DNA of 64,000 bases, taken from NCBI GenBank assembly GCA_948735595.1, contig CAPXSA010000028.1, forward strand, positions 14,397 through 78,396, given 5' to 3'. Made by a program: the position numbers and the translations under genes. Positions 13,426 to 33,320 of the stretch are shown here, piece by piece. Each line of letters opens with the position of its first letter. Position 1 is the first letter of the stretch. This stretch comes from an uncultured Clostridia bacterium. Lineage in GTDB: Bacteria; Bacillota; Clostridia; TANB77; CAG-508. The notes below the pieces were generated by a model. That model worked only from the letters and a program-made list of their open reading frames with translations. It was not told the DNA's origin and did no database searches.

Positions 13426-15006
13426 TTATTCTACACCTAGGTATTCATTATATGTTACTTCTCTATCAATGACTTGATCTGCTTTTATATCAATAATTCG
13501 ATTTGCTACTGTTTGCGTTAATTGATGATCGTGTGATGTAAATAACATATTACCTTTAAACTTTTTCATACCTTCATTTAATGCTGTGATAGACTCCATA
13601 TCTAAATGGTTAGTTGGCTCATCAAAAATTAAGAAGTTAGCACCTGATAGCATTACTTTAGAAAGTACGCATCTCACCTTTTCTCCTCCTGATAAAACAT
13701 TAACCTTCTTCAAAGCTTCTTCTCCTGAAAATAACATTCTTCCTAAAAAGCTTCTAACATATGTTTCATCTGGGTCTTTTGAATATTGTCTTAGCCAGTC
13801 TGTAATAGATAAATCTGACTCAAATAAATAGTTATTATCTTTTGGAAAATAGCTATTGGTAATCGTTGTACCCCAAATGATTTCTCCCTCATCAGGTTCT
13901 AATTCCCCCGCTATAATTTGAAATAACGCTGTTTTTGCATTTTCATTATCTGCTAAAAATGCAATTTTATCATCTTGTTTTACTGTAAAAGACACATTAT
14001 TTAATATTTTTTCGCCATTAATTGTTTTAGAAATATTTTTTACCTGCAAAATTTCCTTTCCCGGCTCTCTATCAGGTTTAAAGTCTACATACGGATATTT
14101 TCTATTCGATGGCTTAATTTCATCTAGTTCAATCTTTTCTAATGATTTCTTACGAGACGTTGCTTGTTTTGATTTCGAAGCATTCGCACTAAATCTAGCA
14201 ATAAATTCTTGTAATTCTTTAATCTTTTCTTCCTTCTTTTTATTAGCATCCTTCATCTGCTTTAAGGCAAGTTGGCTAGATTCATACCAAAAATCATAAT
14301 TTCCGGGATATATTTTGATTTTTCCAAAGTCTACATCTGCAATATGAGTACATACTTTATTTAAAAAGTATCTGTCATGTGATACAACAATAACTGTATT
14401 TTCAAAATTAATTAAAAATTCCTCCAACCAATTAATACTTTTTAAATCTAAGTCATTCGTTGGCTCGTCTAGTAACAATATGTCTGGATTTCCAAATAAT
14501 GCTTGCGCTAAAAGTACTTTTACTTTGTCTTTTGCTTCTAATTCACTCATTAATTTATAGTGTTTGTCTGATTCAATTCCTAAGTCATTTAATAATACTG
14601 CACCATCTGCTTCTGCATTCCAACCATCTAATTCACTAAATTTTTCTTCTAGTTTAGCTGCCCTCATTCCATCCGCTTCTGAAAAGTCTGGCTTAGCATA
14701 TATCTCATCTTTTTCTTTCATAATTTGATATAATTCACTATTTCCCATGATGACAGTATCCATAACAGTATATTGCTCAAAAGCAAAGTGATCTTGTTTT
14801 AATACAGAAATTCTTTCATTTTTTTCTTTAGATACTTCACCTTTACTTGCTTCTATTTCTCCTGATAATACTTTTAAAAAAGTAGATTTTCCAGCCCCAT
14901 TTGCTCCAATAATTCCATAACAACATTCTTTATTGAATTTAATATTTACATCTTCAAATAATGTTCTTTTTCCAAATCGAACTGTTACACCTGTTGCAGT
15001 AAGCAT
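13426..15006 (-). CDS. ABC-F family ATPase, YkpA-like, two tandem NBDs and no TM domain
   Basis: First Walker A is GANGAGKST. The second signature is LSGGEKVR. The inter-domain linker is K/E-rich. The second Walker A (ADNENAKT) and the first signature (SELEAKDKVK) are degenerate, as I recall for the B. subtilis YkpA family. Confidence 0.85.
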   Translation of the reverse strand: MLTATGVTVRFGKRTLFEDVNIKFNKECCYGIIGANGAGKSTFLKVLSGEIEASKGEVSKEKNERISVLKQDHFAFEQYTVMDTVIMGNSELYQIMKEKDEIYAKPDFSEADGMRAAKLEEKFSELDGWNAEADGAVLLNDLGIESDKHYKLMSELEAKDKVKVLLAQALFGNPDILLLDEPTNDLDLKSINWLEEFLINFENTVIVVSHDRYFLNKVCTHIADVDFGKIKIYPGNYDFWYESSQLALKQMKDANKKKEEKIKELQEFIARFSANASKSKQATSRKKSLEKIELDEIKPSNRKYPYVDFKPDREPGKEILQVKNISKTINGEKILNNVSFTVKQDDKIAFLADNENAKTALFQIIAGELEPDEGEIIWGTTITNSYFPKDNNYLFESDLSITDWLRQYSKDPDETYVRSFLGRMLFSGEEALKKVNVLSGGEKVRCVLSKVMLSGANFLIFDEPTNHLDMESITALNEGMKKFKGNMLFTSHDHQLTQTVANRIIDIKADQVIDREVTYNEYLGVE

Positions 15007-15071
15007 TTTGTTCCCTCCTTTTGAAATTCTTTCGTCACATTATATCATACAAAAGCCAATATGGCTAGAGA

Positions 15072-15114
15072 AAAAAATACAATCTATTATTTTTCATAAT
15101 AAATTGTATTTTTT
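15072..15114. terminator. Bidirectional hairpin terminator between the ABC-F start region and the DUF378 gene
   Basis: 12 bp stem AAAAAATACAAT/ATTGTATTTTTT. Confidence 0.55.
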
Positions 15115-15118
15115 CTTG

Positions 15119-15307
15119 TTATTTATCAAATAATATTTTTATAGCCCATAGCCCTGAAATTCCAACTAGTATATAAATAATTTTACTGATGATGGAACCT
15201 ACTCCAAATAGAGCATCTACTATATTATAATTGAAAATTCCAATAATGCCCCATACAATAGCACCTATAATGATTAAGACTAGTGCAATTTTATCTATTA
15301 CCTTCAT
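15119..15307 (-). CDS. DUF378 family small membrane protein
   Basis: IALVLIIIGAIVWGIIGIFNYNIVDALFG is typical of DUF378. I chose the second ATG (15307) because GAAGGAGG sits 8 nt upstream of it and overlaps the first ATG. Confidence 0.8.
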   Translation of the reverse strand: MKVIDKIALVLIIIGAIVWGIIGIFNYNIVDALFGVGSIISKIIYILVGISGLWAIKILFDK

Positions 15308-15368
15308 TACATATACCTCCTTCAAATAAAAATTTGATTCTTTGTTAGTATACGTATTTTTTTAACTT

Positions 15369-16319
15369 TTATCTTAGCATATCCTTTTTATTAAGCCATA
15401 TAGTTGCTATAATTGCTATGATAATGGAAAATGCCAAAATAATTGGAAATCCCCACGGATTTTCTTGAAGTGGTACTGGCACATTCATTCCCCAATAACT
15501 GGCAACCATGGTAGGAATTGCTAGAATAATGGTAATCGATGTTAAATATTTCATGACTCTATTTAGATTATTTGATATAATAGAAGCATAAGCATCCATC
15601 GTTCCATTTAAAATATCACTATATATTTTTGCCATTTCAATAGCTTGTTTATTTTCAATAATAGAATCTTCTAAAATATCTTCATCTTCTTCATAAAGCT
15701 TAATGATTTTTCCTCTCATCGTTTTTTCCATAACTACTTCATTAGATTTTAGAGAAGTAGTAAAGTACACCAAGCTTTTTTCTAAACTTAATAATTTTAA
15801 CAATTCTTTATTTTTCATAGAGTCTTTTAAAACTGATTCTGCAATTTCTGTTTCTTTATTGATTTTCTTTAATAAAGTTAAATATAGAGAAGAATTTGCG
15901 TATAATAATTGTAATAAAAATCTGCTCTTCTTGTAAGTAATAATATTTTTCATTTTACTTTTCGTGATGTCTTGAATAATGGAATTTTGTTTTAAAGAAA
16001 CGGTAATAAAATAATCATCTCTTACAAAAATAATTCCAATTGGCATAGTACTATAAATCATACTATCCCCATCTTTTTCTCGAATTGGAACATCCACAAT
16101 AAATAAAATCGTATTATCCTCATCTTCTATATCAATTCTAGCTTTTTCCTCCGAATCTAGTGCATAACGAATAAAGTCCTCTTGTATATTAATCTTTTCA
16201 CAGACTGTTTTGATTTCACTTTCGGTCGGGGCTATCATGTTAATCCAATTTCCTTTTTCATATTCTGTGGTCTTCTTTGTTTCATTTGTTTTCAAATCTG
16301 TTTGATATATTTCTAACAT
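15369..16319 (-). CDS. corA: CorA-family magnesium/cobalt transporter
   Basis: YWGMNVP (GMN motif) precedes the two C-terminal TM helices. Start set at ATG 16319 (GAAGGGG 8 nt upstream). The listed GTG at 16328 abuts the RBS. Confidence 0.85.
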   Translation of the reverse strand: MLEIYQTDLKTNETKKTTEYEKGNWINMIAPTESEIKTVCEKINIQEDFIRYALDSEEKARIDIEDEDNTILFIVDVPIREKDGDSMIYSTMPIGIIFVRDDYFITVSLKQNSIIQDITKSKMKNIITYKKSRFLLQLLYANSSLYLTLLKKINKETEIAESVLKDSMKNKELLKLLSLEKSLVYFTTSLKSNEVVMEKTMRGKIIKLYEEDEDILEDSIIENKQAIEMAKIYSDILNGTMDAYASIISNNLNRVMKYLTSITIILAIPTMVASYWGMNVPVPLQENPWGFPIILAFSIIIAIIATIWLNKKDMLR

Positions 16320-16386
16320 AATAATCACCCCTTCTTTTTTATTGTACTACTTTCTGGATTAGGTAGCAATATTTTTTTAAAATCTC

Positions 16387-16416
16387 TTGACAAAAGTGGC
16401 GCATGCACCTTATAAT
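16387..16416 (+). promoter_or_regulatory. Sigma-A type promoter of the disrupted tRNA-Lys gene
   Basis: TTGACA (16387-16392), 18 nt spacer, TATAAT (16411-16416), about 17 nt upstream of tRNA position 1. Confidence 0.7.
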
Positions 16417-16433
16417 AAGTATTGTACATTTAT

Positions 16434-16473
16434 GCGCTATTAGCTCAGTTGGTAGAGCAGCAGACTCTTAATC
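16434..16473 (+). pseudogene. 5' part (positions 1-40) of a tRNA-Lys(CUU) gene cut in the anticodon loop
   Basis: The fragment reads acceptor gcgctat, then ta, the D arm gctc-agttggta-gagc, then a, anticodon stem gcaga and loop ctCTTaa, then tc. After that the sequence diverges (atattgtg). The acceptor 5' strand pairs with atggcgc at 23905-23911. Confidence 0.85.
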
Positions 16474-16491
16474 ATATTGTGTATAAAAGAT

Positions 16492-16628
16492 AATCATACG
16501 TTGTTGTAAAATCTCAAAACCGTTGCAGTAAGCAAGTTTTGAGATTTTGTGTTTTTTATTTAGTCAACCTGTTGCCTCTCAAATCATACTTTGCCTTTGT
16601 GAGGTTGTTTATTGACAATCATACTTTG
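16492..16628 (+). repeat. Three direct copies of AATCATAC(G/T)TTG (putative integrase arm-type sites) at the left end
   Basis: Copies lie at 16492-16503, 16582-16593 and 16617-16628. A fourth lies at 23759-23770. The 18-mers at 16582 and 23759 differ at 1 position. Confidence 0.6.
16508..16560 (+). terminator. Strong rho-independent terminator just inside the element's left end
   Basis: Perfect 13 bp stem AAAATCTCAAAAC/GTTTTGAGATTTT with a 15 nt loop, followed by GTGTTTTTTATT. Confidence 0.8.
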
Positions 16629-16640
16629 CAATTATATAAT
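16612..16640 (+). promoter_or_regulatory. Integrase promoter overlapped by an arm-type repeat
   Basis: TTGACA (16612-16617), 17 nt spacer, TATAAT (16635-16640). The spacer contains AATCATACTTTG. Confidence 0.65.
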
Positions 16641-16671
16641 TCAAAATAAGAAAAAAGTGAGGGAAAAAATT

Positions 16672-17751
16672 ATGGCAAATTTAACCAAAAGACCAAGTGA
16701 AAGAAAAGAAGGAATTACAGCAAGACCAATTGTCCTAAAAGGCAAAGGGGAGAGAAATGCAATGACCACTAAAATTACAACAGTTCAAAAGGAATTTTTA
16801 ATTGAGCAAGAAGTAAAAGGAAACTCAAAAGACACATTGAAATATTATAGAAGTTCATTTAAACAAATGAACAGATTTATTGCAAAGCAAGAACTAGCAG
16901 ACCAATTTCCAAAAGGTGCAACAGATGAGGCAATTGTAAAAGCAGGAGAACAAATGCCTTTAGGTGTATTGCTAGATAAAGATTTCGAAGTTAGTTTCAA
17001 AAGGCATTTAGAGGAACAAGGTTGCAATCCTAGAACAGTAAACACTTATTTCAGAGCATACAGAGCCTTTGCATACTATTGTATGGAAGAGGGTTGGATA
17101 CCTTTAAGAAAAATAAGCATAAAAACAAGTAAAGCACCAATTAAACAAGTATATTCAGAAGAAGAATTAAAGAAACTATTAAAAAAGCCAAAGACAAGTG
17201 ATTTCACAGAATACAGAAACTGGGTAATTGTAAATTATATGTTAGCAACTGGAAACAGGCTAAGTTCAATAGTTGCATTAAATATTGAGGATATAGACCT
17301 AGAAAATGGTTACATAAATGTAAATGTACAAAAAAATAAAAAGCCTGTTACAATTCCACTTGTTAAGCAAATGAGAAGAATTTTAAAAGAATATATTGCA
17401 CTCTACAGAAACCTAGAGGAAAACGAAGATTTAAGCTCAACAGACCCCTTATTTTGCAACAGGTTTGGGGAAAGATTGACAGCAGATGGGCTAATCAATG
17501 CAATTGCAAGATACAATCAAAGAAGAGAAGTTACAAAAACATCAATTCACTTATTTAGGCATACCTTTGCTAAAAGCTGGATTTTAAGTGGTGGAGATTT
17601 ATTCAGCTTACAAAAAATGTTAGGACACTCTTCACTAGAAATGGTTAGAAACTATGCAAATTTATATTCAAAAGATATAAAAGATAAAGCAGAAGAATTT
17701 TCTTTTTTATCAAATACAAGGAGAACAACTGGAAAAACATTAAAAATTTAA
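16672..17751 (+). CDS. int: Tyrosine recombinase / phage-type integrase
   Basis: Start set at ATG 16672, 8 nt after GTGAGGG. The N-terminal core-binding segment looks SAM-like. Catalytic motifs are ATGNRLSS (Arg), HLFRHTFA (HxxR) and LGHSSLEMVRNYANLY (His/Tyr). Confidence 0.9.
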   Translation: MANLTKRPSERKEGITARPIVLKGKGERNAMTTKITTVQKEFLIEQEVKGNSKDTLKYYRSSFKQMNRFIAKQELADQFPKGATDEAIVKAGEQMPLGVLLDKDFEVSFKRHLEEQGCNPRTVNTYFRAYRAFAYYCMEEGWIPLRKISIKTSKAPIKQVYSEEELKKLLKKPKTSDFTEYRNWVIVNYMLATGNRLSSIVALNIEDIDLENGYINVNVQKNKKPVTIPLVKQMRRILKEYIALYRNLEENEDLSSTDPLFCNRFGERLTADGLINAIARYNQRREVTKTSIHLFRHTFAKSWILSGGDLFSLQKMLGHSSLEMVRNYANLYSKDIKDKAEEFSFLSNTRRTTGKTLKI

Positions 17752-17959
17752 AAATTAAAGTTTTGATTTTTAGTCCAAATTGTACTATAATTTAATTAAA
17801 GAAAAAATTAAAAATCTACTCTCCATTTTGAGAGTATTATATATAAAATGAGAGAAAAAATCTAATTATGATTTTAAAAAAATTGTCTTTGGATTTTTAC
17901 TCTCTTTTTCTTTAAATTTAAAGAGTAAAAATTTTTAATATTTTGGAGGAAAAAAGCAA

Positions 17960-18160
17960 ATGGAAAATGAAAAACTAAGGACAGAAGTAAAAGAAATAAA
18001 TAAACAAGATAATGTAAGTTTTAAATATTTTGCAAAAAAAATAGGTTTAAAAAATAATTCTTTTTATAATTTTTTAAGTGGTGCAAAGGGTATTTCTGTA
18101 GAAAAACAAGAATTACTAAAAAAAGAATTAAGGAGGTTTCAAGATAAATGTATTTTATGA
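17960..18160 (+). CDS. Small HTH-like protein (66 aa), candidate element regulator/excisionase
   Basis: GGAGGA RBS. VSFKYFAKKIGLKNNSFYNFLSG looks like a helix-turn-helix. TACTCT/AGAGTA inverted repeats lie upstream (17819-17937). Confidence 0.55.
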   Translation: MENEKLRTEVKEINKQDNVSFKYFAKKIGLKNNSFYNFLSGAKGISVEKQELLKKELRRFQDKCIL

Positions 18161-18411
18161 ATATGTTACAACCAAAAATGACTTGTGAAAAAACAATTCA
18201 TTTACTTAATTATACCAAACAAGAAATAATAAAAGAAAAGAATAAATTAAAAGCAGATACAGAACATAAAATTGAAAATTCTGCAAAGCTACAGTTTTTG
18301 GCAAGTTTATATTCAGATTGTATAACTGCAATTCAAGAATTAGAAGAATTGCAAACCTACAGTATGGAACAGATACAAAAGGAAAGAGGTAAAATAGATT
18401 TTTTATTATAA
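18148..18411 (+). CDS. Hypothetical protein (87 aa)
   Basis: The ORF overlaps the previous stop and has AGGAGG upstream. No family recognised. Confidence 0.45.
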   Translation: MYFMNMLQPKMTCEKTIHLLNYTKQEIIKEKNKLKADTEHKIENSAKLQFLASLYSDCITAIQELEELQTYSMEQIQKERGKIDFLL

Positions 18412-18558
18412 AATATGAAGGGGGATAGTTTTGTGAAAAATAATTTTTATTTATATATTTTTTGTTTTCCCTCATAAATAGAAACAGTGAAAACAAAAAT
18501 ATTGATTTTATTTTTTGCAAAAATACATTCCCAAAAAAGAGAGAATAATATTATTAAC

Positions 18559-18590
18559 TTAAATTATTATTTAATTAAATAATAATTTAA
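18559..18590. repeat. 32 bp perfect AT-only palindrome, candidate origin (ori/oriT) of the element
   Basis: TTAAATTATTATTTAA|TTAAATAATAATTTAA lies about 90 nt upstream of the Rep-like gene. Confidence 0.5.
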
Positions 18591-18681
18591 AATAATAATA
18601 TATACGTGGATAAAATGTAGAAAACTCACAAGAAAAAAATAAATGAAAATAAAAAAATTAAAAGAAAAAAGGAGAGAAATT

Positions 18682-19374
18682 ATGCCAAAGTTTATATATA
18701 ATACTCCATTGGCTTTAATCAATAAAAAGCCAAAAGGAGAGCAGATGACAGAAAATGGATATGGATTTTATATGTTCCCAAGTTTAGTGTTTATTTATGC
18801 TTGCAGGGCTTTAAATTTAAGAGAATTAAAACTTTATTTAGCAATTAGTGGACAAGCAGAAAAAGACAGTTTAGGAAAGCCTTGTAAATGGGCAGTCAAG
18901 CACTATTGCGAAATAGCAAACATAAAATCAAATCATTATTCAGAAGTTTTGCAAGGTTTATGTGAAAAAGGTTTTATCATACATAATAATTTTGAATCAA
19001 TTGAAGTTTTATATCCCATTTCAGAAAATGAGTATCTTACACCAACTGGAACAATAAAAAAAGTCAGCTATTTCCCAAATAAGGAAAATGCAAGCAACCA
19101 AGCCAATTCCTCAATTGGGAAAAGTGCCAACCAAGCAGAAGGACAAGCATTTTCCCAAAATAAGGAAGAACTAAAAACAGAAATGGGAAATTATAATTCC
19201 AATTTTAGTAATGATAATTCCCAAATCAAGGCTAATAATAAAGAAATAAATAATTTAATAAATAATTCTAATAAAGACAAAGAAGGAAGTAAACCTTCCC
19301 AAAAATGGGAAGGTTTAGAGGAAGAGGAAAAAAAGCAAGAGGATTTTGCCTTCTCCATAAAAGACCTTTTATAA
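18682..19374 (+). CDS. Putative replication-initiator-like protein: winged-helix-like N-terminus and a low-complexity N/K/S-rich C-terminus
   Basis: Start at ATG 18682, after AAGGAGAG. LKLYLAISGQAEKD...HYCEIANIKSNHYSEVLQGLCEKGFI resembles the wHTH of plasmid/phage replication organisers. The assignment is tentative. Confidence 0.45.
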   Translation: MPKFIYNTPLALINKKPKGEQMTENGYGFYMFPSLVFIYACRALNLRELKLYLAISGQAEKDSLGKPCKWAVKHYCEIANIKSNHYSEVLQGLCEKGFIIHNNFESIEVLYPISENEYLTPTGTIKKVSYFPNKENASNQANSSIGKSANQAEGQAFSQNKEELKTEMGNYNSNFSNDNSQIKANNKEINNLINNSNKDKEGSKPSQKWEGLEEEEKKQEDFAFSIKDLL

Positions 19375-19491
19375 CCCCAATGTAACACAATACATATTTT
19401 GTTACATTGGGTAAAGTCTACGTTTTCGTTGGTACAACTGCATTAGCAAGATTTTAGCAAAAAAGAATTTTAGCAAATGTAACAAAATGTA

Positions 19492-19520
19492 TTGACAAGT
19501 TACATTTAATGTATTATAAT
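19492..19520 (+). promoter_or_regulatory. Consensus promoter of the short recombinase gene, embedded in GTAACA/TGTTAC repeats
   Basis: TTGACA (19492-19497), 17 nt spacer, TATAAT (19515-19520). Several ATGTAACA-like boxes occur at 19378-19510, including a 10 bp inverted repeat CCAATGTAAC/GTTACATTGG. Confidence 0.65.
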
Positions 19521-19554
19521 TGGTGCATAAAATGAATCAAAGGAGAGTTAAAAA

Positions 19555-20115
19555 ATGAATTTTGTGCAACCAATTAGAGAGCCATCAAAAATTGAAGAAA
19601 TGAAAAGAGAATTGAAAAAGACTGGAACAAGGGATTACTTACTATTCTATATGGGAATAAACACAGGACTTAGGATTTCAGACATAATCAAGTTAAAAGT
19701 GAAAGATATTTTAAACTCAGATAGAACAATGAAAACCCATATTGATATAATTGAGGAAAAAACAGAAAAGAAAAAGAAATTTAAGATAAACAATGGACTT
19801 GTGGAAGAATTAAAGCAATTTACTTTAAATATGGATTTTGAAGATTACATTTTTCAAAGTAGAAAAGGAAATAATCAACCAATTACAAGAGTTCAAGCCT
19901 ACAGAATTTTAAATAATGCAGGAGAGAAAATAGGACTTGAGGAAATAGGAACTCATACATTAAGGAAAACTTTTGGGTATCACTTTTACCAACAAACTAA
20001 AGATGTAGCATTGTTACAAGAATTATTTAATCATTCTGCTCCAAGTGTTACTTTGAGATATATTGGAATAAATCAAGATAAAATTGACCAAGCCTATGAT
20101 AATTTTAGTTTATAA
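19555..20115 (+). CDS. Short tyrosine recombinase (186 aa, essentially the catalytic domain only)
   Basis: GLRISDIIKLKVKDI (Arg), GTHTLRKTFGYHF (HxxR), LFNHSAPSVTLRYIG (His/Tyr). Confidence 0.8.
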   Translation: MNFVQPIREPSKIEEMKRELKKTGTRDYLLFYMGINTGLRISDIIKLKVKDILNSDRTMKTHIDIIEEKTEKKKKFKINNGLVEELKQFTLNMDFEDYIFQSRKGNNQPITRVQAYRILNNAGEKIGLEEIGTHTLRKTFGYHFYQQTKDVALLQELFNHSAPSVTLRYIGINQDKIDQAYDNFSL

Positions 20116-20121
20116 TAAATT

Positions 20122-20156
20122 AAGAACTTGTTAAAAGCTAACAATAACAAGTTCTT
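20122..20156. terminator. Bidirectional hairpin terminator
   Basis: 11 bp stem AAGAACTTGTT/AACAAGTTCTT between convergent genes. Confidence 0.65.
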
Positions 20157-20163
20157 ATTCTAA

Positions 20164-20355
20164 TTATTTACTTTTTATTTCTTTTATATCTTCCATATCC
20201 ATATTTTGGATTGCAAATTTAATCATACAATTTACAACATAATTATATGACTTTTTGCTTTTCTTTGATAATTTATCAATTATTTCAAAGTCATTTTCAT
20301 CAACTCTAATTGAAAAAGGTACTTTGTTTATACCACTTGGAATTTTGAAAGCCAT
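20164..20355 (-). CDS. Ribbon-helix-helix (CopG/Arc-like) protein, paralog 1
   Basis: Start at ATG 20355, after AAAGGTGGTG. MAFKIPSGINKVPFSIRVDENDFEIIDKLSKKSKKS has the beta-strand plus two helix pattern. It is about 50% identical to the ORF at 20654-20815. Confidence 0.7.
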   Translation of the reverse strand: MAFKIPSGINKVPFSIRVDENDFEIIDKLSKKSKKSYNYVVNCMIKFAIQNMDMEDIKEIKSK

Positions 20356-20457
20356 AATTTGCACCACCTTTAAACCATTTTTAGTTTATTAGTATTGTAC
20401 ATTTAAGGGCAAAATATGTATAGTTTATAAATCAAACCATAAAATAAACCAAATCTA

Positions 20458-20486
20458 TTGAAAAAAACTTTTTAATACTATATAAT
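20458..20486 (+). promoter_or_regulatory. Near-consensus promoter for the 45-aa membrane peptide ORF
   Basis: TTGAAA (20458-20463), 17 nt spacer, TATAAT (20481-20486). Confidence 0.6.
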
Positions 20487-20506
20487 CTTTGCAGGGGGAA
20501 ACAAAA

Positions 20507-20644
20507 ATGGTTTCATTGTATAGTATAGATTGGGCAGAATTAACCACCTTTGAAAAGTGGTTTACAATTGTATTTTTCATAATTTTAATCATAAGTGCCA
20601 TAATTGCTTATTTTTATGAAAAGCACAAGGAAAAAGAGGAATAA
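20507..20644 (+). CDS. Small single-pass membrane peptide (45 aa), not in the supplied ORF track
   Basis: AGGGGGAA RBS 7 nt upstream. My translation is MVSLYSIDWAELTTFEKWFTIVFFIILIISAIIAYFYEKHKEKEE, with one TM helix and a charged tail. Confidence 0.5.
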   Translation: MVSLYSIDWAELTTFEKWFTIVFFIILIISAIIAYFYEKHKEKEE

Positions 20645-20653
20645 AAAGTCCCC

Positions 20654-20815
20654 TTAATCCATATTTTCAATTGAATACCTTATCATAGCACACACAACCT
20701 CATTAAGGGATTTTTTACTTTCCTCTGCTATCTTCTCTATAATTTGGTAATCTGTTTCCTCAACTCTAATTGTCATTGGTACTTTTGAGATACCCTTTGG
20801 CATTTTAAAGCCCAT
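20654..20815 (-). CDS. Ribbon-helix-helix (CopG/Arc-like) protein, paralog 2 (53 aa), not in the supplied ORF track
   Basis: My translation is MGFKMPKGISKVPMTIRVEETDYQIIEKIAEESKKSLNEVVCAMIRYSIENMD. AGGTGGTGAGAAAT precedes the ATG. Confidence 0.65.
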   Translation of the reverse strand: MGFKMPKGISKVPMTIRVEETDYQIIEKIAEESKKSLNEVVCAMIRYSIENMD

Positions 20816-20987
20816 ATTTCTCACCACCTATTTATAAAATGTTTCTAAAATCAAAGCAATTTTATAATTTTTAGAGAAGATAGTATATTTCTAATATGTT
20901 TCATAAAGTGAATTAAATTAGTTGCATAAAATGATTTTATCTGTTATAATTTATCATATAAAATAAAGAAAAGAGGAGATTTTTATT

Positions 20988-22160
20988 ATGAAAAAGAAAA
21001 AAATAATGTTCTTATTATTAGTATTGTTTATTATTTTATTGGGTAGTATTTTATTTATTGTATTTTATGCTTCTCAAAATACTGTCAATGTTGGAACAAC
21101 TGCTAGTAAAGGAAATGAGGTTAGTTGGAAAAAGAATATAAAAAGCTATACTTCCAATGAATTGACAAATGGATATTATATAAAGAGTGGAAATAGATTT
21201 TATCCTTTAACCTCTATTGATAATCTATATGACAATAATAATTCAATAACTAGTGATTTTAAAACTTCAAATGAAAAAAACTCTATGTTCTATGGATTAT
21301 ATAATTTTTTCTTTTTAAATACTTCTTATAAAGATAATATTCCACATATTAACTTAAAAAATGAAGATGACAAAATAGTTTTTGTAGGAGATACTATTCC
21401 TAAAATGATTATACTGAAAAATTCTATAGAACTAACAGTTGATAATAAAACAGAATTAGATGAAGAAATAAGAAACTATTTTATTTTTTCTAATTTAAAA
21501 ATAGAAGACACCCCAACAGTATTACAAAAAGGAACTAAAACAAGTGAAGTTTTTGTGAGATTTTTCATATTAGGAACTTATACTAATGATTATACTATGA
21601 CAACTGATGGATATATGGAAATAAATTTTGAAAAAAATGATTGTGGAACTGGTATGTATCTAATTGGTGATAAAGCATTTTTTATTGAACAAGATAATAG
21701 CAAGATAGAAAAAATAGTATTGCAAGATAAACAAGAACAAATTAATATGGCTAGTATATTGTTAAAGATTGCTGAAACTGAAAATGAAATATTTAAGGAT
21801 AAAATCGAAATTGCCCAAAAAGTAAATCCTTCTTCAATTAACAGGCAAAACTGTTCTTTTTATTATACAATAAAAAAAGGTACTTCCATTTATAATGTAG
21901 ATACTTCTGATGGTTTACTTTCAGCATTAAGAAAAGGAATAAAAATCTTGCCAGAAAAGGATAAATTGTCTAAAGACCATCTTCGTAGCTTACCTGAATA
22001 TGGTTTTGATACCTGGGAAGACCAAATAAGTACCAAAATAATAGATGGAACAAGATACTATTTCTTTAATAATGTCAATAATGCTTATGCTATACAAGCA
22101 CAAGATTATTGCAATATATTAGTAAAGGCAATAACTGATGAAGATTTTACAATATTTTAA
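20988..22160 (+). CDS. Membrane-anchored hypothetical protein (390 aa)
   Basis: GAGGAG RBS. The N-terminal KKKK plus hydrophobic helix is a signal anchor. No family recognised. Confidence 0.7.
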   Translation: MKKKKIMFLLLVLFIILLGSILFIVFYASQNTVNVGTTASKGNEVSWKKNIKSYTSNELTNGYYIKSGNRFYPLTSIDNLYDNNNSITSDFKTSNEKNSMFYGLYNFFFLNTSYKDNIPHINLKNEDDKIVFVGDTIPKMIILKNSIELTVDNKTELDEEIRNYFIFSNLKIEDTPTVLQKGTKTSEVFVRFFILGTYTNDYTMTTDGYMEINFEKNDCGTGMYLIGDKAFFIEQDNSKIEKIVLQDKQEQINMASILLKIAETENEIFKDKIEIAQKVNPSSINRQNCSFYYTIKKGTSIYNVDTSDGLLSALRKGIKILPEKDKLSKDHLRSLPEYGFDTWEDQISTKIIDGTRYYFFNNVNNAYAIQAQDYCNILVKAITDEDFTIF

Positions 22161-22171
22161 AATTAGTATTC

Positions 22172-22210
22172 AAGCCCCTATTCCTATTTTTGGAAAAGGG
22201 CTTTTATTTA
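22172..22210 (+). terminator. Probable terminator after the 390-aa gene
   Basis: AAGCCC...GGGCTT stem followed by TTTTATTT. Confidence 0.5.
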
Positions 22211-22263
22211 TTCCCTTTATTGGCTCTAAAATGCCTCACATTCCCATTTTAGGAATAAGCCAA

Positions 22264-22458
22264 TTATAATATACCAAAATACTGTAAAACTTTTTCTTCT
22301 GTTTCTATAACTAAACCTGCACAATCAAGATATTGCCACATACCATCTATTTTATCTTCAATGGTATCTTCTAAACCATCTTCCCCAGTATCTGCTAATA
22401 TCTCTCCATAATAAACTTCATTTAATCTTTCAACTTGCTCACTTGTTAAATTTTTCAT
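22264..22458 (-). CDS. Hypothetical small acidic protein (64 aa)
   Basis: Start at ATG 22458. Its leader TTGAAAGGTGGTTTTAGTT is nearly identical to the leader of the 22925-23167 gene. Confidence 0.55.
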   Translation of the reverse strand: MKNLTSEQVERLNEVYYGEILADTGEDGLEDTIEDKIDGMWQYLDCAGLVIETEEKVLQYFGIL

Positions 22459-22570
22459 AACTAAAACCACCTTTCAAAATTTATTTTATACCTTTTCCCA
22501 TTTTAGGAAACAGTCAATAATTTATATGCCTATTTAAGCTATAAATGGCTCATATTGCATTTTTTATATT

Positions 22571-22912
22571 TTAGCAATAACAATACCTATTAAATCTGTT
22601 TTTGGTATTATTTCTCCAACTGCAATCATAATAATTAAATATTAAGACATTTCTATTTTCTAACAATTCGTGAATATCCTTAAAATCAAAACCATATTTT
22701 TTGTAAAATGCAATTATTAACTCAATTTTATGTTCAATCTCAAAGGCTTGCTCAAATAAATTATTTATTCTTTCTGGACTTTCTCCATTGATTGCAAAAT
22801 CTATGTATAAACTAGTATCAGTTGCAAGCAATAATTCTTTTCTTTTTTCAATTGTAAAAATACTATTGAATAACATATTTATTATTTTAATTTCATAATT
22901 AGTTAAATTCAT
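22571..22912 (-). CDS. Hypothetical protein (113 aa)
   Basis: AAGGGGG RBS. It starts 12 nt after the upstream stop, so it is probably co-transcribed. Confidence 0.55.
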   Translation of the reverse strand: MNLTNYEIKIINMLFNSIFTIEKRKELLLATDTSLYIDFAINGESPERINNLFEQAFEIEHKIELIIAFYKKYGFDFKDIHELLENRNVLIFNYYDCSWRNNTKNRFNRYCYC

Positions 22913-22924
22913 AAATACCCCCTT

Positions 22925-23167
22925 CTATATTCCATAAACTAAATCTCTCATATCAATATGGATACGTTTTATTATTTTTCCTGTTTCTAAATCCATAACA
23001 GTTCTATCTAATTGTATATTACAACTTGTATCTCCCATTATCAATTTTGAATAAGGTTTTACAATTCCATCTTTTTCCCAAAAGTTTAGAACATACTTTT
23101 TCCCCATTGTTTCACTATTTAAAATTTTTCCTTTTAATTCTCTCCAACTTTTTACTATGTTTCCCAT
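22925..23167 (-). CDS. Hypothetical protein (80 aa)
   Basis: Start at ATG 23167, after TTGAAAGGTGGTTTTAATT. Confidence 0.55.
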   Translation of the reverse strand: MGNIVKSWRELKGKILNSETMGKKYVLNFWEKDGIVKPYSKLIMGDTSCNIQLDRTVMDLETGKIIKRIHIDMRDLVYGI

Positions 23168-23487
23168 AATTAAAACCACCTTTCAAATATTTATTTCTTA
23201 TCTCTTTGTTGTACTTATTATACCTTTTTTTATGCCTAAAATCAAATTAAGCAAAGCATATTTCCTTACTCTTGCAACAGTTTTAAGGCACATTTTAATT
23301 ATTGGTACAACTGAATTGCAAGGCACAAAAATTTCAAAAATAAGTTTCAAATCCCTTACTACAAGCAGATTGCAGAGCATAAAAAAGTTTTTTAAAAAAA
23401 TTTTAGCAAAAATTCTCTTACAGTATCAAGTCTTACAGAAGCGGATTATGTAAACAAGTTGTGCCTGCATAAAATACTGTAAAAGTA

Positions 23488-23516
23488 TTGACTTTTACTC
23501 TAAAAACAATTATAAT
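23488..23516 (+). promoter_or_regulatory. Promoter of the element-borne tRNA-Lys
   Basis: TTGACT (23488-23493), 17 nt spacer, TATAAT (23511-23516), about 40 nt upstream of the tRNA. Confidence 0.65.
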
Positions 23517-23556
23517 TATAAAGTAGTTTTTGAAAAACTGTAAATCATTGATATAA

Positions 23557-23632
23557 GCACCACTAGCTCAGTTGGTAGAGCAGGGCACTCTTAATGCCAA
23601 GGTCCACAGTTCGACCCTGTGGTGGTGCACCA
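23557..23632 (+). tRNA. tRNA-Lys (anticodon CTT), complete, CCA encoded, carried inside the integrative element
   Basis: By hand the sequence folds as follows. Acceptor gcaccac pairs with gtggtgc. The D arm is gctc-agttggta-gagc. The anticodon arm is gggca-ctCTTaa-tgcca. The variable loop is aggtc. The T arm is cacag-ttcgacc-ctgtg. The 3' end is A-CCA. Confidence 0.9.
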
Positions 23633-23675
23633 ATAGGCACTTTCAAGTATTTTGGAAGTGTTTATTTTTTTGCAC

Positions 23676-23704
23676 TTGACAAGTCCTTATGATTTCCCTA
23701 TAAT
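23676..23704 (+). promoter_or_regulatory. Perfect consensus promoter pointing out of the element's right end
   Basis: TTGACA (23676-23681), 17 nt spacer, TATAAT (23699-23704). No plausible ORF follows before attR. Confidence 0.6.
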
Positions 23705-23868
23705 ATGGTGTAACATTGAATTGAAAAATTGCAAAAAATGAAAAATAGAAAAAAGGCTAATCATACGTTGCCTTTGAAATGATTGAAAAACGAATATAAA
23801 AATAGGAATAGCAAACCGCTGAGAGAGTAAGCAAAAATAAAACAAAGCTTGATTTTACCACTCCGTAT

Positions 23869-23915
23869 GACTCTTAATCTGATGGTCGGAGGTTCGACTC
23901 CTCTATGGCGCACCA
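23869..23915 (+). pseudogene. 3' part of the disrupted tRNA-Lys(CUU): repeat copy, anticodon-stem 3' strand, T arm, acceptor 3' strand and CCA
   Basis: The fragment reads gactcttaatc, tga, tggtc, the T arm ggagg-ttcgact-cctct, acceptor atggcgc, then A-CCA. It complements the 5' fragment at 16434-16473. Confidence 0.85.
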
Positions 23916-23921
23916 AATTAT

Positions 23922-23960
23922 AACAACTTACGAACTATAAAGTTTGTAGGTTGTTTTTTA
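23922..23960 (+). terminator. Original terminator of the chromosomal tRNA-Lys gene
   Basis: Stem AACAACTTACGAAC/GTTTGTAGGTTGTT (12 of 14 pairs) followed by TTTTTTA. Confidence 0.65.
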
Positions 23961-24008
23961 TATATATAACTAAAAAATGTTCTCTTTCTGGAAAGGAGAA
24001 TATTTTTT

Positions 24009-24293
24009 ATGCTTGAATTTGAAATATTACAAGAATTAGAGCCAAATGCTGAAATATTAGAAATAATAAAAGACTATGAGTATATAGTTGAAAATGGTAA
24101 AATTAAGCATTTAAAGGCTACTAATTTGCAATTTATTGAACCAAATGAATATTTAATTACATATCCATCTACTCTTACTATCTTTGAATATAAAGTAAAT
24201 GAAATTGCAAATAAGAACTTTTATGTTAAAGAACATAACCAAAAGTATAACTTAAAAGAACTTAAACAAATTCTCATGAAATTAAAAACTTAG
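24009..24293 (+). CDS. Hypothetical protein (94 aa)
   Basis: AAAGGAG RBS. No family recognised. Confidence 0.55.
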   Translation: MLEFEILQELEPNAEILEIIKDYEYIVENGKIKHLKATNLQFIEPNEYLITYPSTLTIFEYKVNEIANKNFYVKEHNQKYNLKELKQILMKLKT

Positions 24294-24485
24294 CTTGCAA
24301 AAGTGCGTTTTAATTAGGAAACATATGAAAGAATTAAATTTTTTTAAAAAAATTTCAAAAATAGGGGGGCGAAAACGCACTTTTCTGAGCAAACATATGA
24401 GAGGGTAAAAATTTTTAAAAGTTTTTTACAAATTTACCATACAAAACCCTAAAAAATTCACGGATATAGTAGGAGGTAATATTTT

Positions 24486-26270
24486 ATGAGATGTGGAATT
24501 TATGTAAGAGTATCAACAGATGAACAGAGAGATAATGGCTATTCTATTGATTCACAGTTACGAATGATAAAAGAATATTGTGAAAAGAACAATTACGATA
24601 TTGTAGATGTGTATAATGATGCAGGACATTCTGGAAAAGACTTAATGCGACCAGAAATGCAAAGGCTTTTAAAAGATATTAAATCACACAAAATTGAGAA
24701 AATAATAGCTATTAAAGTGGATAGGCTAACAAGAAATAACTATGATGGCTTTTGGCTTTTAAACTATTGTGAAGAACATGATGTTAAAATAGAGCTTATT
24801 TTAGAGCCTTATGATGTATCTACTGCAAATGGTGAAATGATATTTGGAATGAATTTAGTATTTGGACAAAGAGAAAGAAAAGAGATTGGAGCAAGAACAA
24901 AAAGGGCTATGGAGGAAATGGTGCTTGAAAAGGTACACCCAGCAAAAGCACCTTATGGCTATACTAGAAATAGTGAAACAGGTCATTTAGAAGTTGAGCC
25001 TATTGAAACACAAGTAGTAAAAAGAATATTTGAATTATATAAAAATGGAGCTTCAATAAGAGGTATTTCTAATACTTTAAATGAAGAAAAAGCATATTCA
25101 AGGCAAGGAAGATGGAACAGTGATAAAGTATATAAAATATTAACAAATTTAATTTATATAGGAACTTTTGCTTATGGCAAAACAAAAAGAAAAGCACAAG
25201 ATATTCTATATGTAGATAATTATTGTGAGCCAATCATTGATAAAAATACATGGGATATTGCAAGAAAAAGATTAGAAAAGAACAAACATCCTAATTATGG
25301 AGAGCATATTCATTTATTTACTGGCATTGTAAAATGTCCTACTTGTGGCAAAATAATGTCATCTACAAACTCATTTAAGAATAGTGGAAAGCCTAATCAA
25401 AAAGTATATTATCATGTAACTTGTAATAATCCTAATTGCAAATCAAAGGGGTTTCACTATAATTCTGATAAGATTGAAGAAAAATTAACACGAGTTTTGA
25501 ATGAACTAACAAGATATATGTATGATATGGATAATAAAATTATAGTATGTAATTCTACTAAAACAAAAGATATTAAAGACATAGAAAAAGCTATTGAAAA
25601 ACTAAAACTGCAAGAGAAAAAGTTAGTGGATTTATACTTGAGTTCTACTTTAAATGTTGAAACTATTAATAATAAAAATGATATTATAAAGAAAGAAATA
25701 GAAAATTTGAATAAGAAAAAGCAACAAATTGATCCAAATAATGATTATAAAGAATATACAATAGAACTATTGAAAAAATTGGATTGCAACCTCGAAGATA
25801 ATGAAGTTGTTTTTAAAAATAGACTAGGTTTTTCATTTGTTTCTGAGAGTTTAAATAGAAAATCTAAAAAAGAATTGATTAAAAGATTAATTGATACAAT
25901 CGAAATTAAGAGAGATAAAAATTACAATATTGAGATAACAAATATTAAATTTACAGAAGAATTTATTTCAAAAAGTAGCAAGGATTATATTGAATATTTA
26001 TATGAAATACTACAAAACAATGATGTAGGTTTTATTTATAAAGAAGCAATAACTAGACAAGAATTAGATAAATTGCAAGAATATTATTTTGTATTTTCTA
26101 ATAATAAAATTGCCAATAATGAGTATGATAATGCTACTTTAACAATATATAATGAGTTATTAAAACAGAATTTTTATGATAATGAAATTATAATTTGTCC
26201 TTACGTTGAGAATGAAAACATAGTAGATTATTTAACATTAATGCCAAGAATTCCATTAGAAATTGCATAA
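24486..26270 (+). CDS. Large serine recombinase (resolvase domain, recombinase domain and zinc-ribbon/coiled-coil C-terminus)
   Basis: N-terminus is MRCGIYVRVSTDEQ with the catalytic Ser, then VDRLTRN. Cys clusters are CPTCGK...CNNPNC. The C-terminus is long and K/E/N-rich. Confidence 0.9.
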   Translation: MRCGIYVRVSTDEQRDNGYSIDSQLRMIKEYCEKNNYDIVDVYNDAGHSGKDLMRPEMQRLLKDIKSHKIEKIIAIKVDRLTRNNYDGFWLLNYCEEHDVKIELILEPYDVSTANGEMIFGMNLVFGQRERKEIGARTKRAMEEMVLEKVHPAKAPYGYTRNSETGHLEVEPIETQVVKRIFELYKNGASIRGISNTLNEEKAYSRQGRWNSDKVYKILTNLIYIGTFAYGKTKRKAQDILYVDNYCEPIIDKNTWDIARKRLEKNKHPNYGEHIHLFTGIVKCPTCGKIMSSTNSFKNSGKPNQKVYYHVTCNNPNCKSKGFHYNSDKIEEKLTRVLNELTRYMYDMDNKIIVCNSTKTKDIKDIEKAIEKLKLQEKKLVDLYLSSTLNVETINNKNDIIKKEIENLNKKKQQIDPNNDYKEYTIELLKKLDCNLEDNEVVFKNRLGFSFVSESLNRKSKKELIKRLIDTIEIKRDKNYNIEITNIKFTEEFISKSSKDYIEYLYEILQNNDVGFIYKEAITRQELDKLQEYYFVFSNNKIANNEYDNATLTIYNELLKQNFYDNEIIICPYVENENIVDYLTLMPRIPLEIA

Positions 26271-26504
26271 AGTGGTTTGAACTTTTTACAGAAAATGAAC
26301 TCAAAAATAGTACAATAAAAAATGCAACTTTTTAAAAATTAGAAAGTCTTGTCCTAGCAAGCACTGCATTTGTCTACACGCCAAATACCAAATTTGTGTC
26401 TCAGCAAGCAATGAATTTGTACTCCCGCACAAATTTCAATATGGGATTTACCCCCCATACCCCAAAAACTGATAAAAATTTAAAATTGAAAGGAATAGAA
26501 AATT

Positions 26505-26852
26505 ATGAATGATGAAAAATTAAATTATGTAATAGATATGATAAAAGATATGGATTTAGAAAATAAATTAAGATTAGCAATATGTATGTGTGATAATTAC
26601 AGTTATACTAATTTACAATATGATAAAAAAGAAATGTGTAAATACTTTGATAATCTACTAAAAGAAATTAATATAGAATACAGAACAACTACTATTAACT
26701 TTGCAAATTATCCATATACAATTTTTGTATCAAGCAAAATTATGGAGATGGATTCAGCACAACAAAATAAAATTGCATTATATCTTTTCAATAGCATAAA
26801 TTTTAAAATTAAAAATTGCAAAAGTCTTGACAGTAAAGAACAGATGTTTTAG
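26505..26852 (+). CDS. Hypothetical protein (115 aa)
   Basis: AAAGGAA RBS. No family recognised. Confidence 0.5.
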   Translation: MNDEKLNYVIDMIKDMDLENKLRLAICMCDNYSYTNLQYDKKEMCKYFDNLLKEINIEYRTTTINFANYPYTIFVSSKIMEMDSAQQNKIALYLFNSINFKIKNCKSLDSKEQMF

Positions 26853-26883
26853 AATATATAAAGTAAGAAAAGGATGTGGAACT

Positions 26884-27807
26884 ATGGAAGAAAATAAATT
26901 AGCAATTCAAAATGAATTCATCAATGAAGATATAAAAAATTTAATATATACAATAAGAAATAAGCAAGTAATGTTAGACAGTGATGTAGCAATGTTATAT
27001 CATTATGAAACTAAAAAAGTTAATCAAGCAGTAAAGAGAAATATAGATAGATTTCCAGAAAGATTTTGTTTTAAATTATCTAAGAATGAGTTTGAAGTTT
27101 TGAGGTCACAAATTGTGACCTCAAAAATAGAAAACTATGATAAAGAAGAAAGACGTGGAGGAAGGAGAGATTTGCCTTATGTATTTACAGAACAAGGAAT
27201 AGCTATGTTATCAGGTTTATTAAAAAATGAAATTGCAGTACAAGTTAGCATTAAAATAATGGATGCATTTGTGGAAATGAGAAAATTTATAAATACTAAT
27301 AAAAATTTATTTGAAAAAGTCATTACTATTGAAAATAAAATGGATAAAAAGTTTATTGAACAAGATAAGAAATTCGATATAATATTTGATCAATTACAAC
27401 TTGACGAGAATATCAAGCAAAGAATATTTTTTGATGGTCAAATATATGATGCATATAGCATCATTGTAGACATTATAAAAAGAGCAAATATCAAGATTTT
27501 GATTATAGACAATTATATTGATGATAGTGTTTTAAAAATGTTAGCCAAAAAGAAAAGCAATACCGAAGTTATTATTTTAACATCTAATAAAAGTAATATT
27601 GAAAATTTAGATGTTAAAAAATTCAACAAAGAATATCCTGTCTTGAAAGTTGCTAAAACAAATAAATTTCATGATAGGTTTATTATTATAGACAACAAAG
27701 AAATGTATCATTTAGGTGCTTCTATAAAAGATTTAGGAAAGAAGTGCTTTGGAATTAATAAAATAGAAGATATAGAGATTATAGAAAAAATTATCAATTC
27801 GTTTTAG
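26884..27807 (+). CDS. ORF6N (KilA-N-like) DNA-binding domain protein with a C-terminal PLD-like domain
   Basis: The N-terminus IRNKQVMLDSDVAMLYHYETKKVNQAVKRNIDRFPERFCFKLS is typical of ORF6N. The C-terminus KFHDRFIIIDNKEMYHLGASIKDLGKK resembles a degenerate HxK(x)4D motif, with Arg in place of Lys. Confidence 0.75.
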   Translation: MEENKLAIQNEFINEDIKNLIYTIRNKQVMLDSDVAMLYHYETKKVNQAVKRNIDRFPERFCFKLSKNEFEVLRSQIVTSKIENYDKEERRGGRRDLPYVFTEQGIAMLSGLLKNEIAVQVSIKIMDAFVEMRKFINTNKNLFEKVITIENKMDKKFIEQDKKFDIIFDQLQLDENIKQRIFFDGQIYDAYSIIVDIIKRANIKILIIDNYIDDSVLKMLAKKKSNTEVIILTSNKSNIENLDVKKFNKEYPVLKVAKTNKFHDRFIIIDNKEMYHLGASIKDLGKKCFGINKIEDIEIIEKIINSF

Positions 27808-33244: not shown

Positions 33245-33320
33245 TGGTGAGCCATCGCGGACTCGAACCGCGGACAACTTGATTAAAAGTCAAGTGCTCT
33301 ACCACCTGAGCTAATGACCC
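33245..33320 (-). tRNA. tRNA-Lys (anticodon TTT)
   Basis: The reverse complement folds as gggtcat, then ta, D arm gctc-aggtggta-gagc, then a, anticodon arm cttga-ctTTTaa-tcaag, variable loop ttgtc, T arm cgcgg-ttcgagt-ccgcg, acceptor atggctc, then A-CCA. Confidence 0.9.

Follow-up and report, generated by a model that had tools for sequence, protein, structure and literature searches.

The 64,000-nucleotide (nt) stretch analysed here, which we call the window, comes from contig CAPXSA010000028.1 of an uncultured Clostridia bacterium and contains a tRNA-Lys(CUU) gene that has been cut in its anticodon loop by an integrated element of some 7.4 kb. The element carries a complete tRNA-Lys(CUU) gene of its own. 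The features at the locus are:

16387..16416, plus strand: promoter of the host tRNA, TTGACA-18-TATAAT (12/12 consensus positions), identical in the empty-site contig L008
16434..16473, plus strand: 5' part of the host tRNA-Lys(CUU) gene, positions 1-40 (attL), read from the sequence and equal to positions 1-40 of the intact gene in L008
16463..16473, plus strand: left copy of the 11-bp common core GACTCTTAATC, made up of the anticodon loop and 2 bp of stem on each side
16474..23868, plus strand: integrated element, 7,395 bp unique (7,406 bp with one copy of the core), missing from empty sites and present in L001
23488..23516, plus strand: promoter of the element tRNA, TTGACT-17-TATAAT (11/12), conserved
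23557..23632, plus strand: complete element tRNA-Lys(CUU) (ARAGORN; Rfam tRNA, 60.8 bits)
23632..23666, plus strand: terminator of the element tRNA, conserved
23869..23879, plus strand: right copy of the 11-bp core GACTCTTAATC (attR), read from the sequence
23880..23915, plus strand: 3' part of the host tRNA-Lys(CUU) gene, positions 41-76, identical to the intact gene in L008
23922..23955, plus strand: terminator of the host tRNA gene, from a sequence scan

The 5' part of the host gene spans the acceptor 5' strand, the D arm, the 5' strand of the anticodon stem, the loop CTCTTAA and the dinucleotide TC, and the 3' part spans the 3' strand of the anticodon stem, the variable loop, the T arm, the acceptor 3' strand and ACCA. 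ARAGORN called four tRNAs in the window, none of them at 16434, while Rfam cmscan, run over 15000-26000 with a threshold of E<=1, gave the tRNA at 23557 as its sole match; neither program found a tRNA at either junction. The in-silico join of 16473 to 23880 yields 76 nt, which ARAGORN calls as tRNA-Lys(ctt) with a normal cloverleaf, and the host promoter still lies upstream of the orphaned 5' part. The initial annotation had placed the two parts at these positions, with a second copy of the core in front of the 3' part, and had held that they join into a canonical 76-nt tRNA, that the promoter and the terminator (which we place at 23922-23955) are retained, and that the gene is not rebuilt. 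All of this was confirmed, and the covariance-model search for an intact tRNA at 16434 found none.

The flanking CorA protein (a 316-aa reading) was looked up in public assemblies to find the same locus in other genomes. Contigs L008, L012 and L015 are empty sites, in which an intact tRNA gene corresponds exactly to the predicted join and has the same flanks, in the order CorA, the same promoter, the intact tRNA, the same terminator, a 94-aa open reading frame (ORF) and a serine recombinase gene. The whole segment 16474-23868, second tRNA included, is not in these contigs. The occupied site recurs in L001, a contig of an independent metagenome-assembled genome (MAG). Another contig, L009, stops exactly after ...GACTCTTAATC, which is expected where occupied and empty alleles fork in the assembly graph of one sample. 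Finally, contig L116 (SRR23619901) has the attP layout: the element tRNA, its terminator, a second promoter, ...CCGTATGACTCTTAATCATATTGTG... and the integrase gene (int). Bases 1-447 of this contig match window 23436-23879 and bases 437-2200 match 16463-18228, the overlap being the 11-bp core, and its element is 97% and 90% similar to that of the window over the two aligned parts. This junction indicates that an element 90-97% identical to that of the window exists as a circle or in tandem. All four configurations (attB, attL, attR and attP) have therefore been seen as sequence, and the cut in the anticodon loop, which the initial annotation attributed to an integrative element and proposed to examine in relatives with an empty site, is documented by an empty site, an occupied site and an attP junction.

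Two other candidate explanations of the layout were rejected. An assembly artefact is ruled out by the same junctions in many independent assemblies and by the empty sites. The tRNA at 23557 might also have been a host gene beside a second, decayed island; this is ruled out by the empty sites, which are without the whole of 16474-23868.

Relatives of the integrase at 73-91% identity were found in metagenomes and MAGs only, the latter being labelled uncultured Clostridia or Bacillota. The family of loci comprises the window, L001, L016-L018 (three species-level genomes), L100, L102-L104, L107, L108-L111, L112-L113 and L114. Every locus that can be judged (about 15) has the 5' part of a host tRNA-Lys(CUU) cut in the anticodon loop, int, and a complete element tRNA-Lys(ctt), and the host 3' part is found wherever a family contig extends to its end. 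The cut follows GACTCTTAATC at all standard junctions of the family, with the same 11-mer at both junctions, and the element tRNA and the attR core lie 283-285 nt apart, loop to loop, wherever a contig includes both. Further host 5' halves occur in L105, L112, L115 and L117.

The fully reconstructed host tRNAs comprise 6 sequences that have 57-73 of 76 positions in common pairwise, the 11-bp loop region being identical in all of them, and the element tRNA variants comprise 5 sequences; all host and element variants fold as tRNA-Lys. Among nine distinct host and element sequences, 95% of the cells are paired and double changes occur in 14/21 pairs, a level that 0/500 shuffles reach; in the slid controls for cloverleaf covariation, none came close to the observed value. 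This pairing, with its compensatory changes, indicates that the host and the element gene sets are both under tRNA-type constraint. The 27-43 pair at the top of the anticodon stem is non-standard (G-A, G-G or A-A) in all nine.

Identical element tRNAs occur in hosts whose own tRNAs share 62-64 of 76 positions (L016-L018 versus L102-L104, and L100 versus L108-L111). Moreover, one identical integrase protein, P0126, lies beside 3 or 4 distinct 5' halves of host genes and is also encoded on the attP contig. The presence of identical element tRNAs and integrases in differing hosts implies that the elements move between species.

The left end of L114 (L114:1-270, from ERZ14231475 NODE_5104) is composite. 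A host promoter and 5' half of the window type stop at ...GACTCTTAA and are followed by some 175 bp of unrecognised DNA and then by a second tRNA-Lys(CUU) 5' half of another host type (GGGTGAT...CAGCTGG); beyond this second half, a normal element follows, with a 3' half of the window type at attR. The composite left junction has only GACTCTTAA in common with the core. It seems that an old attL and its flank were dragged from a previous host by excision at a secondary CTCTTAA site; the composite end could also be a nested remnant.

The element tRNA, which lies about 240 bp inside the element, has the acceptor stem GCACCAC/GTGGTGC and the anticodon stem GGGCA/TGCCA. It shares 55/76 positions with the host gene and differs at 21/76, so the earlier claim that it is a complete tRNA-Lys(CUU) with its own promoter, and not a copy of the host gene, holds. 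In the window, ARAGORN found no other tRNA-Lys(CUU); it did find a tRNA-Lys(UUU) at 33245-33320. In many bacteria, tRNA-Lys(UUU) reads AAG by wobble.

From this arrangement, the initial annotation had drawn the conclusion of an addiction-like stabilisation, in which the host depends on the element for this isoacceptor unless other copies exist elsewhere; loss of the element would then kill a cell or impair its growth. The host gene is indeed inactivated, the window has no tRNA-Lys(CUU) other than that of the element, 23% of the Lys codons in host ORFs are AAG, and the tRNA is retained in every family member seen. However, the normal route of loss would be integrase-mediated excision (attL x attR), which regenerates the host gene, the empty sites being the exact join, so that a penalty would fall on internal deletions only; moreover, tRNA-Lys(UUU) is present, and empty-site strains with an intact gene exist. 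Since loss by the normal route would go unpunished, the case for addiction is weak, the earlier conclusion is not upheld, and we consider this explanation improbable. We regard the element tRNA as what the element has to pay for leaving its target unrepaired, rather than as a means of stabilising itself.

Another explanation would be that the element uses its tRNA for its own translation, or as a decoy or a replacement against anticodon nucleases that attack tRNA-Lys, the match in isoacceptor being incidental. It has been proposed that phages use their tRNAs against defences that cleave tRNA, and PrrC cuts tRNA-Lys (PMC10865867); the stems of the element tRNA, moreover, differ from those of the host. 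Against this, the carried anticodon is that of the destroyed gene in every combination of element and host, the tRNA lies at a fixed distance inside attP, and the anticodon loop, the target of the nucleases, is unchanged in the element tRNAs. AAG usage is also the same in the element ORFs (23% of Lys codons) as in those of the host, so there is no special demand. This explanation is therefore very unlikely, even more so than addiction.

The window's element tRNA has C30-G40 (CACTCTTAATG, at 23587-23597) where all host and other element tRNAs have G30-C40. As a result of this swap, the 11-bp core is gone from the tRNA of the window's own element and the fold is kept. The other four element tRNA types (compared in L016, L100, L107 and L112) keep the full core and, judging from this match, could in principle be cut by their own integrase.

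The regions on either side of the core contain the following features:

16492..16624, plus strand: three AATCATAC motifs (at 16492, 16582 and 16617) in the int-proximal arm of attP, conserved in 7 elements
16507..16562, plus strand: AU-rich hairpin with a U tract just inside attL (minimum free energy -20.8 kcal/mol, z = -3.6; 0/200 shuffles fold as well)
16612..16640, plus strand: int promoter, TTGACA-17-TATAAT (12/12), conserved, with a AATCATAC motif in its spacer
23676..23704, plus strand: second promoter-like site, TTGACA-17-TATAAT (12/12), facing the core, with both hexamers kept in 7 elements
23759..23766, plus strand: AATCATAC motif in the tRNA-proximal arm of attP, with AATCATACGTTGCCTTTG conserved

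The attP core, GTATGA-CTCTTAA-TCATA(C/T), is an inverted repeat around the anticodon-loop sequence and resembles the host stem-loop, nnnGA-CTCTTAA-TCnnn. The motif AATCATAC repeats the right half of this core (TTAATCATAC in most family members, TTAATCATAT in the window); it occurs 9 times in the window, and 4 of these copies, all on the plus strand, lie within about 160 bp of the core. These arm motifs are putative binding sites of the integrase. In related elements, the letters of the stem of the 16507-16562 hairpin change yet stay complementary (as we read the alignment), and the hairpin probably acts as an intrinsic terminator, keeping transcription from the host tRNA promoter out of int. 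The second promoter-like site, the spacer of which holds an inverted copy of the arm motif, reads across attP in a circle; in the integrated state, it reads into the orphaned 3' half of the host gene and the terminator behind it.

A further reading is that the two halves of the host gene still work as a split tRNA, as in Nanoarchaeum, with the 5' half transcribed from the host promoter, the 3' half from the 23676-23704 promoter, and the two assembled in trans. Each half does have an upstream promoter and a downstream terminator, and the second promoter is kept in 7 elements. However, the duplex between the 5'-half trailer and the 3'-half leader has an energy of -26.6 kcal/mol versus -25.7 +/- 4.0 kcal/mol for shuffled sequences, and the complete spare tRNA makes such a system redundant. 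To our knowledge, bacteria lack the archaeal splicing endonuclease pathway. Trans-assembly, which would have to be counted as extremely unlikely in any case, was rejected on the grounds that the flanks of the half-transcripts are no more complementary than shuffles.

More distant integrases (about 34-50% identity) adjoin tRNA-Ser(GGA) genes, and the crossover is again in the anticodon loop at the loci examined in detail. In L022, L027, L032, L035 and L040, the mode is classical, with an intact tRNA beside int and a displaced 3' fragment at the far end. A mirror mode is found in L019:2415-7929 and L023:9492-14459 (about 47-48% identity), where an orphan host promoter and 5' part lie beside int and the far end has an intact tRNA with an identical 5' half; this identity indicates that there the element supplies the 5' half. 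L021:50-130, with an integrase in the same identity range, has an attL as in L019 and L023, and its contig stops before the far end. The arm motifs of these mirror-mode relatives (GAAATCGTG) also repeat the right half of their core. Neither mode is new: among the islands collected by Islander, 3,760 have 3' fragments and 159 have 5' fragments (PMC4383910). A single integrase family that supplies the 3' half, the 5' half or the whole of the tRNA offers a natural series for the evolution of the strategy.

The predicted genes of the window's element are:

16672..17751, plus strand: tyrosine integrase, 359 aa, Xer-like, with a SAM-like N-domain (PF00589 2e-31, PF13102 3e-8)
17960..18411, plus strand: two small conserved ORFs, 66 aa (helix-turn-helix (HTH)-like) and 87 aa, with weak DUF7726 and HTH-regulator matches, syntenic in all related elements
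18643..19374, plus strand: probable winged-helix replication initiator-like protein, 230-243 aa (Rep3_N (PF01051), Foldseek)
19555..20115, plus strand: small tyrosine recombinase, 186 aa, of the plasmid multimer-resolution type (PF00589 2e-25)
20164..20827, minus strand: two small ribbon-helix-helix (CopG/Arc-like) proteins, with weak RHH_1, DUF6290 and Arc-like PHROG matches
20988..22160, plus strand: cargo ORF of 390 aa, its translation hydrophobic in an N-terminal segment, without a family match, at a position where the content varies among elements
22264..23179, minus strand: three conserved small ORFs of 68, 113 and 84 aa, syntenic in all elements, without a family or Protein Data Bank (PDB) match

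The integrase gene adjoins attL. In the family alignment of its product, R196, K221, H293, R296 and Y332 are invariant, and the best PDB relatives of the protein are XerA, XerD and XerH. The 66-aa and 87-aa ORFs are candidate regulators or excision factors. The Rep3_N family (PF01051) matches 12/23 of the Rep-like family members, with a best E of 1e-5, and the window protein only at E = 0.022; its top Foldseek matches are RepA_N initiators, at the weak level of E = 0.04-0.1, and its N-domain is modelled with a predicted local distance difference test (pLDDT) score of 80-90. A search for iterons for this gene gave nothing convincing, only a 2.8-copy, 16-nt AT-rich repeat at 18544-18590, and neither the 243-aa nor the 113-aa protein had a useful match when its sequence was searched against the PDB. 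In L112:3902-4516 and L113:3908-4522, a serine resolvase (PF00239, 204 aa) stands in place of the small tyrosine recombinase, which fits an exchangeable multimer-resolution module. The counterparts of the three leftward small ORFs across the elements are about 60-94, 102-113 and 77-80 aa long. Around this cluster, the palindromic motif TTCC(C/T)ATTTT(A/T)GGAA is present in 3 intergenic copies (window 22181-22521), which may be a set of operators.

No phage structural, packaging, lysis or capsid genes were found in the element in family and PHROGs searches, and its PHROGs matches are integrases and small regulators only. Whole-element blastn against PLSDB and phage collections gave the small recombinase gene as the only DNA match among the matches listed, short high-identity phage matches being left aside. 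Scans of viral contigs (IMG/VR) with the integrase and with the attP string found no relatives, GenBank phages likewise gave no relatives of the element, and a scan of metagenome contigs with the integrase found distant fragments only. The carrier is, by its predicted genes, a small non-phage element with a plasmid-like gene set, though it may be a phage satellite.

We think it likely that this small non-phage element integrates, by means of its Xer-like integrase, into the anticodon loop of tRNA-Lys(CUU) and covers the loss with its own tRNA. The mechanism would be as follows. The Xer-like tyrosine integrase of the plasmid-like element of about 7.4 kb would recombine the attP core with the structure that it imitates, the anticodon stem-loop of the tRNA-Lys(CUU) gene in the host, and strand exchange would take place inside the shared 11 bp. 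With neither tRNA half present in attP, the host gene would be left as two dead pieces; the complete tRNA-Lys(CUU) with its own promoter and terminator, which lies on the arm of attP away from int at 283-285 nt from the core, would cover the loss. The terminator just inside attL would shield int from the strong promoter of the host tRNA.

Carrying a whole tRNA would also free the element from having to match the acceptor and T stems of its host, so that it could settle in species whose tRNA-Lys(CUU) differs everywhere but in the region of the anticodon loop. Cross-host hybrids, in which the 5' half of one host gene is joined to the 3' half of another, often have 1-4 mismatches in the acceptor. 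A whole tRNA avoids this problem, since a fixed 3' half would give 1-4 acceptor-stem mismatches in many hosts; the 11-bp loop region is then the sole host sequence that the element needs. What we infer is that this integrase carries out the recombination, that the tRNA of the element is expressed and makes up for the lost gene, and that the host range is widened in this way.

Some points weigh against this reading. The attP contig is, as a sequence, compatible with a free circle and with a tandem array, which it does not distinguish. The product of 18643-19374 is probably a winged-helix Rep-like protein, although this assignment is weak. No relaxase was detected in the element and no oriT was recognised in it. 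As for the compensation itself, the retention of the tRNA in every family member argues that the loss of tRNA-Lys(CUU) is costly; however, the tRNA-Lys(UUU) may read AAG, in which case the compensation would be a gain in fitness rather than essential.

The initial annotation regarded a layout in which the gene is not rebuilt as unusual. The gene is indeed not rebuilt, but the layout has a precedent in the tRNA-dependent lysogeny of actinobacteriophages described in 2024. Guerrero-Bustamante and Hatfull (mBio 2024) showed that a tyrosine integrase there uses a core of about 8-17 bp, that the tRNA is not rebuilt, and that lysogens need a phage tRNA of the same isotype to survive, with experimental support in phages (PMC10865867). 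The cases are Fionnbharth/K4, cluster L, CQ2, DL and Gaia actinobacteriophages; occurrence outside Actinobacteria was suggested, with the Lactobacillus johnsonii prophage Lj965 as a suspected Firmicute case (PMC10865867).

The likeness to our element is considerable. Both systems have a tyrosine integrase and an attB inside a host tRNA gene (read here from sequence); both have a short core (8-17 bp there, 11 bp here), so that the tRNA is not rebuilt; and in both, the carried tRNA has the same anticodon and isotype as the target, another sequence and its own promoter. In both cases, moreover, the integrase has close relatives that work in the classical way and rebuild the tRNA, and Lys tRNAs are frequent targets. 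The differences lie first in the carrier, which here is 7.4 kb long and without phage genes, so that there is no logic of lysogeny or clear plaques, and in the hosts, which here are uncultured, gut-type Clostridia of low GC (guanine plus cytosine) content. They also lie in the integrase, which here is Xer-like, with no arm-type N-terminal DNA-binding domain detected, and in the position of the tRNA, which here is in the attP arm (283-285 nt from the core), whereas the Fionnbharth tRNA overlaps gene 37, away from attP. Finally, it is the CUU isoacceptor that is hit here, the loss of which may be tolerable, and essentiality has been shown in phages only. At the level of sequence, the element shows the three features that define tRNA-dependent lysogeny, and it is not a temperate phage. 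The seemingly unrelated lineage of the integrase (Xer-like, not lambda-like) suggests an independent invention.

With classical islands of the Islander type (PMC4383910), the element has in common a crossover centred on the anticodon loop, in which the stem sequences are the inverted core sites, as well as an int that adjoins attL and displaced tRNA fragments that mark the ends. Unlike in those islands, neither junction here regenerates the gene and both fragments are displaced. Small integrative plasmids and mobilizable elements of Firmicutes resemble the element in their small size, Rep-like winged-helix protein, ribbon-helix-helix regulators, variable cargo and multimer-resolution recombinase (tyrosine or serine, interchangeable within the family). 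The element differs from them in that no relaxase or oriT is recognised, in its weak Rep assignment, and in having no close DNA relative in PLSDB or the phage collections, among the matches listed, except for the small recombinase. A literature search, which did not cover all journals, found no report of the strategy in non-phage elements beyond the phage paper and the papers citing it.

The strategy of destroying a tRNA gene and bringing one's own would thereby be extended from actinobacteriophages to small non-phage elements of uncultured Clostridia. In practice, island finders that require a regenerated tRNA and one displaced fragment will probably miss or mis-map such elements, and a tRNA carried by an element will be taken for a host gene when the tRNAs of a MAG are listed. 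With its 11-bp target, common to divergent tRNA-Lys(CUU) genes, the compact unit of int, attP and tRNA (about 1.9 kb) could be useful as an integration vector for Clostridia that resist genetic work.

A bolder proposal, which we advance tentatively and think unlikely as it stands, is that int, attP and the tRNA form a self-contained module, indifferent to the tRNA sequence of its host, that hops between species, and that the carried tRNA is itself a substrate for recombination. If this were true, element tRNAs with a full core could be fresh docking sites for incoming relatives. If the element tRNA recombined with the attP core, at a distance of 283 bp, an element could, moreover, be converted to the type that carries a 5' half, as seen among the tRNA-Ser relatives, and the C30-G40 swap (CACTCTTAATG) would protect the window's tRNA from its own integrase.

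In the window, the 3' part of the host tRNA gene is immediately followed by the 94-aa ORF, a large serine recombinase of 594 aa (24486-26270) and a protein with an ORF6N domain (26827-27807), the three together occupying 24009-27807; at least the first two are also at the empty sites. In L100, L105 and L108, which come from other species, tRNA-Lys(CUU) has a VanW gene immediately in front of it that points the same way, and in the window, VanW (28420-30501) lies on the other side of the tRNA and is inverted. This arrangement suggests an inversion or a second small element at the locus. The window opens with a very long ORF (28 to 6615), which encodes 2,195 aa.

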